IMG/VR virus record: IMGVR_UViG_3300030250_000013
Source: a virus
Taxonomy: Duplodnaviria; Heunggongvirae; Uroviricota; Caudoviricetes
DNA: 54,876 nt
Reading direction: 5' to 3' (one strand)
In this document: one piece after another, positions 33,356-33,737 of the stretch
How positions within the stretch are numbered: position 1 is the stretch's first letter
Layout: each line of letters opens with the position of its first letter
The notes under the pieces: generated by a model
What the model was told of the DNA's origin: nothing
The model's database searches: none
The model's input: the letters and a program-made list of their open reading frames with translations, nothing else
Position numbers and translations under genes: made by a program

Positions 33356-33737
33356 ATGAAGAAACTGATTCTATGCGCAATGTTAACAACCCTGACAGCC
33401 TGTGATAACGCTGCTGATGTTGCCAGTCGTAACGTTGCAACCGCTGCAGCTAACTTTGAAGTAAATCGTCGTATCGTTTTCTATAACGTTCGTAATGGTG
33501 AGTATCGTTTTCTATCGAAGGTCGTTGTGCCCGTGAGAACACTAGCAAAGAGATCGAAATCACCTGTAAAACTGGTCCGAACGACGTTAAGAAACACTTT
33601 ATGGGGTTAACCACGGAGGTAACTTATTTCATTGAACAAACAGACTCCTCGCCAACAGATCAGTATCGTTATCGTGTTACGTTTAACCCGATGCAAATTC
33701 TCCCGGATCTAAACATCCGTCACCTTGGAGAATAACC
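33356..33737 (+). CDS. lipoprotein interrupted by a frameshift in a T-tract (possible superinfection-exclusion lipoprotein)
   Basis: Signal peptide MKKLILCAMLTTLTAC with lipobox LTAC; reading frame switches at the T4 run at 33508-33511 (a fifth T would join 33356-33610 to the frame that ends at 33737). Confidence 0.4.

Follow-up and report, generated by a model that had tools for sequence, protein, structure and literature searches.

A lipoprotein gene of the PF25682 family in a 9NA-like coliphage, probably a recent pseudogene, with a frameshift that copies a nearby repeat

The experimental data that we found on the PF25682 (Phage_VG64) family of phage lipoproteins come from a single 2026 preprint on mycobacteriophage D29, in which the family is linked to lysis and to toxicity at the cell envelope (bioRxiv 10.64898/2026.08.27.747656). 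According to that study, the product of D29 gene 64 is a lipoprotein whose lipobox reads LVGC, and the gene has a patchy distribution among phages related to D29. Deletion of gene 64 left plaque size and lysis kinetics unchanged, its over-expression was fully toxic to M. smegmatis, and the gp64 lipobox-cysteine mutant C31Y suppressed the lysis defect of a double lysis-regulator deletion. Here we describe a family member in IMG/VR virus record IMGVR_UViG_3300030250_000013, a stretch of 54,876 nucleotides (nt) that is called the window below. Megablast places the window among the 9NA-like siphoviruses (genera Nonanavirus/Sashavirus) as a coliphage. The locus is very probably a recently inactivated pseudogene of an accessory PF25682 lipoprotein, broken by a genuine templated frameshift.

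Templated mutation at quasi-repeats by strand switching is known from phage T4 and E. coli, mostly in laboratory mutants. Ripley, Drake and others reportedly described this "correction" of quasi-repeats in phage T4 rII and in E. coli.

One family gene in two reading frames

The locus opens with an open reading frame (ORF) that starts with ATG, encodes 84 amino acids (aa) and carries a lipoprotein signal peptide with an LTAC lipobox (Table 1), as the first-pass annotation of the window had described. The codon of the lipid-modified Cys16 (33401–33403) is followed by an Asp codon (33404–33406), and the mature N-terminus predicted from the window sequence is Cys-Asp-Asn. The −1 frame is open from 33502, where it begins VSF-SIEGRCARENTSKEIEITCKTGPNDVKK, and terminates at a TAA at 33733–33735; the first-pass annotation had the correct start, but placed the end two bases too far, at 33737. 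Its view that this frame reads as a natural continuation of the lipoprotein is borne out. Adding one base in the TTTT run (33508–33511) gives a 126-aa joined reading that matches Pfam PF25682 over residues 4–121 (E = 7.8e-45; score 152 bits, threshold 27), and a match of this strength puts it beyond chance that the two frames are parts of one gene. An intact orthologue matches phrog_478 (PHROG 478) with E = 2.7e-45. The closest relatives of the window, at 94–97% identity, are Escherichia phages vB_EcoS_AVIO78A (AVIO78A), PDP46 and KarinMuster_Bas82 (Bas82) and Sashavirus 536P12. A single 381-nt coding sequence (CDS) of 126 aa, with 95–97% nucleotide identity, stands at this position in all four of these phages, so the comparison with orthologues that the annotation had proposed yields one intact gene and not two.

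The family is widespread. A homologue database search found 593 members, with PF25682 on all of the 120 best listed, and tblastn against 50,697 phage records located homologues in 935 genomes. By host, these matches fell to Mycobacterium (349), Bacillus (192), Gordonia (79), Streptococcus (50) and Staphylococcus (47), with Streptomyces, Arthrobacter, Proteus, Vibrio and Erwinia as further host genera. The coliphage copy is ~45% identical to the copies of actinobacteriophages or Bacillus phages. Besides the lipobox Cys, the conserved features are two more Cys, both invariant, a helix, a predicted five-strand sheet and four motifs, RR.VF.N, (Y)LL.I.G.C, KKHF.G and VTYF.EQ. In alignments of 36 and of 59 homologues, Cys16 of the lipobox and Leu52 are invariant and position 51 is always L/M/I/V; positions 51–52 form the start of strand beta-2 in the predicted core. 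One member is named "beta-sandwich lipoprotein" by NCBI. NCBIfam gave sub-threshold signal-peptide matches only, a PADLOC search gave no match, a PDB sequence-profile search gave 0 hits, and a literature search found nothing on "beta-sandwich lipoprotein" or "phrog_478".

A functional family member is expected to encode its mature domain in an uninterrupted ORF that includes the invariant Leu52, Cys58 and Cys71. In the window, the ORF breaks at codon 51/52, Leu52 is replaced, and Cys58 and Cys71 are encoded in the −1 frame only. Because of this break, the window copy is a pseudogene of the family and no functional member. Its 84-aa product consists of the signal peptide and lipobox, native residues 17–50 (34 residues), R51, F52 and 32 out-of-frame, basic residues. 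Of the five beta-strands it retains beta-1 only, together with the helix. The other four strands are missing, as are the two conserved Cys of the mature domain, so that the product is most probably non-functional. The remnant in the −1 frame carries these two Cys together with the KKHF, VTYF.EQ and Y.Y.V.F.P motifs, and is 98–99% identical to intact orthologues. A 44-codon ORF inside the remnant is no separate gene, because its Met is a family-internal Met/Leu position. The exact 84-aa product is present on 9–15 public contigs and as NCBI protein DAI71440.1, from a third-party-annotated metagenome-assembled genome. The label of that protein, [quoted passage not shown], is unrelated to the real family.

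Origin and reality of the lesion

Relatives read GAG TAT CTT TTG TCT ATC (E-Y-L-L-S-I) at the break, where the window reads GAG TAT CGT TT- TCT ATC. The lesion therefore consists of a T→G change at 33507, which creates R51 of the 84-aa product, and the deletion of a G that followed the T run, between 33510 and 33511. The lesion core (33506–33513) is CGTTTTCT in the window allele and CTTTTGTCT in its intact counterpart. By these changes, the ancestral GTATCTTTTGTCTAT (15 nt) became GTATCGTTTTCTAT (14 nt). The intact allele holds GTATCGTTTTCTAT at codons 39–43 and the imperfect copy GTATCTTTTGTCTAT at codons 49–54, and the window holds two perfect 14-nt copies 31 nt apart. This 14-mer occurs 2 times in the 54.9-kilobase window, against 0 occurrences expected from shuffles. 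The first-pass annotation had proposed that one extra T in the run at 33508–33511 would restore a 126-aa fusion; the arithmetic is right, but the length of the T run is not the cause. We rejected slippage in the T run, since a one-step change of the run leaves both the T→G change and the lost G unexplained.

An intact allele of the same lineage (P0124) is present in public data. It encodes Leu-Leu at 51–52 and shares Ser98 and Leu124, both lineage-specific, with the window. Its two contigs, L014 (ERZ15609857, ~1050x coverage) and L015 (ERR10688869), show two differences only from the window across 32865–33883 (~1 kilobase), namely at 33507 and at the G missing at 33510/33511. Upstream of 32865, L014 diverges by ~4% from the window. 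Because these contigs differ from the window only at the lesion across this stretch, they represent an almost isogenic intact ancestor, in which the two changes are clustered at one place. A single event as the origin of both would fit the finding of no other difference in ~1 kilobase between the intact and broken alleles.

To place the lesion among its possible counterparts, 7609 distinct variants of the intact gene with one substitution and one single-base deletion at most 5 nt apart were enumerated. None of the others created as long a perfect direct repeat over the mutated site as the observed variant, which ranked first of the 7609 with 14 nt (second-ranked variant 12 nt, p ~ 1.3e-4). Identical short arms, GTATC and CTAT, flank the converted segment. 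This pattern, together with the precedent in T4 and E. coli, suggested that the lesion is the signature of templated mutation at a quasi-repeat. In the mechanism we infer, the immediate ancestor would have been an intact 126-aa gene holding the imperfect direct repeat. During replication, the nascent strand would have moved to the upstream quasi-repeat, pairing through GTATC, copied GTTTTCTAT from the upstream copy and then returned. One such event would overwrite the downstream copy, replacing T by G and dropping 1 nt at the same time. The phage would survive with its broken gene, viable and circulating, because the gene is dispensable. With an intact and near-isogenic ancestor in public data, the lesion makes a clean natural example of quasi-repeat templated mutation.

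The same lesion was found repeatedly. Six fetched loci are 100% identical to the window over up to 6255 nt: JGI metagenomes 3300014770 and 3300029310, Logan assemblies of SRR1929408 and SRR1929485, and ENA ERZ27296280 (megahit naming) and ERZ1745275 (SPAdes, 29x coverage). These samples include at least two distinct runs. They represent one clonal phage that different pipelines assembled repeatedly, with the same lesion each time. The whole window was also aligned to AVIO78A and PDP46, and all gaps whose length is not a multiple of three were listed. Outside divergent or mosaic stretches, isolated 1-nt differences from both relatives occur at 29019, 39305, 42382 and 33511. Positions 29019 and 39305 are annotated intergenic terminator regions of AVIO78A and 42382 lies just past the stop codon of the large terminase, leaving 33511 as the only one inside a conserved gene. 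A further 1-nt difference concerns AVIO78A: at 33051 (within 33046–33055), the window has A5 and AVIO78A has A6, and the upstream neighbour gene is split there into CDSs AVIO78A_044/045 (L001 458–842). This neighbour gene is intact, with 127 aa, in the window, PDP46 and Bas82. The split is either a sequencing error or a real frameshift of the AVIO78A record.

These observations bear on the question of whether the phage is really intact, with an indel that arose in the reads or the consensus near the T run. The lesion does touch a short homopolymer, and the A5/A6 difference that splits the neighbour gene in AVIO78A is of an error-like kind. On the other side, the identical sequence comes from at least two SRA runs plus four other assemblies and from at least three assemblers, one assembly being at 29x, and the lesion joins a substitution to a deletion in an exact copy of a 14-mer 31 nt away. 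Collapse of the repeat by an assembler is impossible, because the repeat is far shorter than any read or k-mer. A sequencing or assembly error is thus very unlikely, close to negligible, because the sequence is identical in multiple assemblies and because no further isolated indel breaks the frame of a conserved gene of the window in the comparison with both relatives. The broken sequence is real, as different assemblers returned it from more than one run.

Functional recoding would keep a low level of full-length lipoprotein through a −1 slip on U_UUU before CUA, for example to throttle a toxic protein. The junction lends this some plausibility: tRNA-Phe re-pairs perfectly one base back (TTT at 33509–33511 to TTT at 33508–33510), and the next zero-frame codon is CUA, which is rare in E. 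coli. Over-expression of the D29 family member is cytotoxic, and the remnant is still undecayed. However, the junction (TAT CGT TTT CTA) contains no X_XXY_YYZ slippery heptamer and permits only single-tRNA re-pairing on T_TTT. No stimulatory RNA structure was found downstream, where the folding energy of 89 nt is −13.7 kcal/mol and shuffled sequences average −15.6 (z = +0.67). A frameshift at this site is not conserved either, since a single ORF runs through it in frame in the near-isogenic allele and in every isolated relative examined. The product of the slip would read EY-RF-SIEG in place of the conserved EY-LL-SIEG, so that L51R and L52F would put Arg and Phe at the start of beta-2, where the family tolerates only L/M/I/V and an invariant Leu. 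No selection for recoding is visible, because the event is at most a few mutations old. Given the absence of heptamer and structure, the unshifted orthologues and a predicted product that breaks family conservation, recoding is a poor explanation, to which we assign very little credence. Equally improbable is that the 84-aa lipopeptide, with its signal peptide, helix, single strand and basic tail, is itself a selected product. The clone is present in several samples and both lipobox and promoter are intact, as a neo-functional truncation would have it. Yet the lipopeptide lacks four of the five core strands as well as the two conserved Cys, its tail is a frame-shifted read-through without a homologue, and two other lineages destroy the gene quite differently, which fits loss of the gene and not a specific new product. 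The first-pass annotation had left error, pseudogene and slippage side by side; the repeated assemblies and intact orthologues favor the pseudogene, error is very unlikely, and slippage finds neither a heptamer nor an RNA structure.

Several points weigh against the reading of the locus as a recently inactivated pseudogene. The evidence consists of assembled contigs, and the six samples, all of one clone, may share read sets or stem from one study. An occasional −1 slip of tRNA-Phe on U_UUU, with the rare CUA next, might allow trace read-through. The remnant has not decayed further, so that relaxed selection is not demonstrable and the event is simply recent; it has only about three lineage-specific substitutions, which are also in P0124. 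Functional loss of the 84-aa product is predicted from its sequence, and the function of the enterobacterial protein would be extrapolated from one actinobacteriophage preprint. Dispensability and toxicity are likewise known from the literature for D29 gp64 only, and apply to the window gene by analogy.

Recurrent loss, labels and genomic context

The gene has been lost more than once. Within the 90%-identity cluster of the intact orthologue (104 members), we found two further disrupted alleles. In P0125 (111 aa; several sources, 23 contigs), one C is inserted at GACCCCTC (C4→C5) and shifts the frame at ~codon 98. P0133 (113 aa; 4 contigs) has lost 42 nt in frame between the direct repeats GTCGTAACGTT and GTCGTATCGTT, a deletion that removes 14 conserved codons, including those of the invariant Phe34, Arg38 and Arg39. 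The loci of the disrupted alleles are L016–L019 (gene at 601–936) and L020 (gene at 601–942). In mycobacteriophage Piper2020 (MK494120), the homologue appears as two tblastn pieces that span ~760 nt and lie on either side of a gene annotated as encoding an MPME1 protein, an arrangement suggestive of a mobile-element insertion. With the window lesion, the coliphage alleles make three independent inactivations in one group, which fits a dispensable, perhaps costly gene. It is conceivable, though we consider it rather unlikely, that the break is one case of recurrent selected loss of a self-toxic, envelope-active lipoprotein and not neutral decay. If so, the three coliphage lesions and the apparent mobile-element insertion would mark a conditionally costly gene, and the ~45% identity of family copies from phages of Proteobacteria, Actinobacteria and Firmicutes would point to a target that all these cell envelopes have conserved. 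A variant in which leaky −1 slippage at U_UUU_CUA keeps a trickle of toxic protein is less likely still.

Inactivation of the window gene is ordinary biology of a known, widespread and poorly understood lipoprotein family, with a modest side interest in the natural templated mutation, the repeated gene loss and the mislabelled family. The wider value lies in the family, not in this copy: it is present in 935 phage records, is mislabelled and has one recent link to lysis. Because the gene is repeatedly lost in 9NA-like coliphages, E. coli would be a convenient host for finding the target of the family.

PHROG 478 and many RefSeq phage records label the family "site-specific recombination directionality factor" (RDF); records with a homologue include NC_018860 (BCP78), NC_041984 (Tiger) and NC_002668 (bIL309). 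We rejected this identity for a protein with an export signal and a lipobox, in phages with no integrase among the 105 annotated genes of AVIO78A and none in the first 50 kilobases of PDP46. 9NA is described as virulent (PMC4153490). The RDF label looks like a propagated misannotation. We propose that 33356–33735 be annotated as one PF25682 pseudogene, and not as two hypothetical genes, a "TraF/TraO/TraN" protein or an "RDF".

The lipoprotein gene belongs to a five-gene operon on the + strand (32933–34411). In the promoter-like element upstream of the operon, a −35 TTGACG starts at 32882 and a −10 TATCTT ends at 32910. No noteworthy internal signal came out of terminator and promoter scans around the lipoprotein gene. 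The operon's next gene has orthologous CDSs annotated in AVIO78A, PDP46 and Bas82, and should still be translated despite the upstream truncation because it has its own GGAG.

The promoter-like element is one copy of a dispersed ~26-nt motif, TTTAAAATAATTCTTGAC(G/A)GATTACA, with at least 11 sites in the window. The motif is nearly invariant and resembles an A/T-rich UP element followed by a −35 TTGAC; its copies are probably the phage's own family of strong sigma-70 promoters. Two copies face outward from the intergenic region 32560–32930. A 109-nt intergenic direct repeat, 89% identical between 32657–32764 and 49568–49676, adjoins motif copies, one repeat copy lying upstream of the lipoprotein operon and the other upstream of a 270-aa ORF at 49809. 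This ORF (49809–50621, +) contains VARVEAP five times in tandem with a 21-nt period (50400–50480), and an ORF at 32165–32542 (−) contains two to three tandem EPVTTAV units. Both in-frame tandem repeats could vary in length.

Table 1. Features of the lipoprotein locus and copies of the dispersed motif in the window
Feature	Position	Strand	Basis or remark
Truncated ORF, 84 aa	33356–33610	+	ATG 33356, TAA 33608–33610
Signal peptide MKKLILCAMLTTLTAC, lipobox L-T-A-C	33356–33403	+	Direct sequence reading
Upstream direct-repeat copy GTATCGTTTTCTAT, presumed mutation template	33471–33484	+	Unchanged in intact alleles
Repeat copy bearing the lesion, GTATCGTTTTCTAT	33502–33515	+	Alignments with relatives and intact contigs
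Remnant, ancestral codons 53–126 and stop, now in −1 frame	33511–33735	+	Sequence, profile, alignments
44-codon ATG ORF inside the remnant	33601–33735	+	Met is the family-internal conserved Met/Leu of KKHF-M-GL
Next operon gene, 53 aa, ATG 33739	33727–33900	+	Shine-Dalgarno GGAG 33727–33730
Promoter-like element upstream of the operon	32869–32910	+	Consensus scan; putative function
Motif copy	32869–32895	+	
Motif copies	32552–32589, 85–125, 1625–1662	−	
Further motif copies	36764–36801, 38536–38573, 40759–40796, 44206–44243, 45976–46013, 47590–47629, 48078–48115	+	

Comparison with described systems

The nearest described counterpart is gp64 of mycobacteriophages D29 and L5, which belongs to the same family (PF25682, PHROG 478). 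The D29 ORF is a confirmed member (tblastn E = 2e-24, with ~46% identity between D29 gp64 and the copy described here) and contains LVGC...KYLLEIQGRC...VTC...KKHFLGLSDNVTYFVEQ. The two proteins share their architecture of signal peptide, lipobox Cys, helix, five-strand sheet, two Cys and the (Y)LL.I.G.C motif, and both genes can be lost without killing the phage. They differ in that the window copy is frameshifted and its host is a Gram-negative enterobacterium, and in that experiments are known for the D29 member and for no proteobacterial one. The window gene lies in a small divergent operon inside the head-gene region, whereas the D29 gene lies in the right arm. In the sorting of E. coli lipoproteins, Asp at +2 is a signal for retention in the inner membrane. 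Because Asp follows the lipidated Cys of the window protein, inner-membrane retention is predicted, a further difference from D29; the closest homologues examined likewise conserve an acidic residue, Asp or Glu, at +2. Most likely, the intact protein faces the periplasm as a lipoprotein retained in the inner membrane by this Asp and would act on the envelope late in infection.

Exclusion lipoproteins such as Llp of T5 and Cor of phi80, N15 and T1 resemble the intact protein in being small phage lipoproteins encoded in a non-structural operon of a siphovirus. The first-pass annotation had raised such a role, with an outer-membrane lipoprotein blocking the receptor, and the comparison lends it no support. 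The Asp at +2 is not an outer-membrane sorting signal, and the family is abundant in phages that infect Gram-positive bacteria or mycobacteria and is carried by phages whose hosts lack an outer membrane. In small siphoviruses, porin-targeting exclusion lipoproteins are encoded beside the receptor-binding locus, while Nonanavirus phages recognise O-antigen through a single tailspike, as reported in the BASEL study (PMC11990801). The gene in the window lies away from the receptor-binding locus, between oppositely oriented head genes, and Pfam, NCBIfam, PDB-profile and PADLOC searches found no resemblance in sequence or fold to known exclusion proteins. The intact protein is probably not an outer-membrane receptor blocker, its exclusion role being unsupported rather than disproved.

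The lesion itself can be set beside two known phenomena. With programmed −1 frameshifting, as in the tail-assembly chaperone G/GT of the same phage group, it shares two overlapping frames whose products can be joined. The window locus differs in having neither heptamer nor stimulator, in its lack of conservation among orthologues and in junction residues that violate family conservation; the genuine chaperone frameshift of the relatives is annotated elsewhere (AVIO78A_058/059). With quasi-repeat templated mutation, it shares a tight cluster of changes, a mutant sequence identical to a nearby imperfect copy and short identical flanking arms. The difference is that the example described here appears, from its sequence, to be a natural polymorphism between metagenomic phage genomes and not a selected laboratory mutant.

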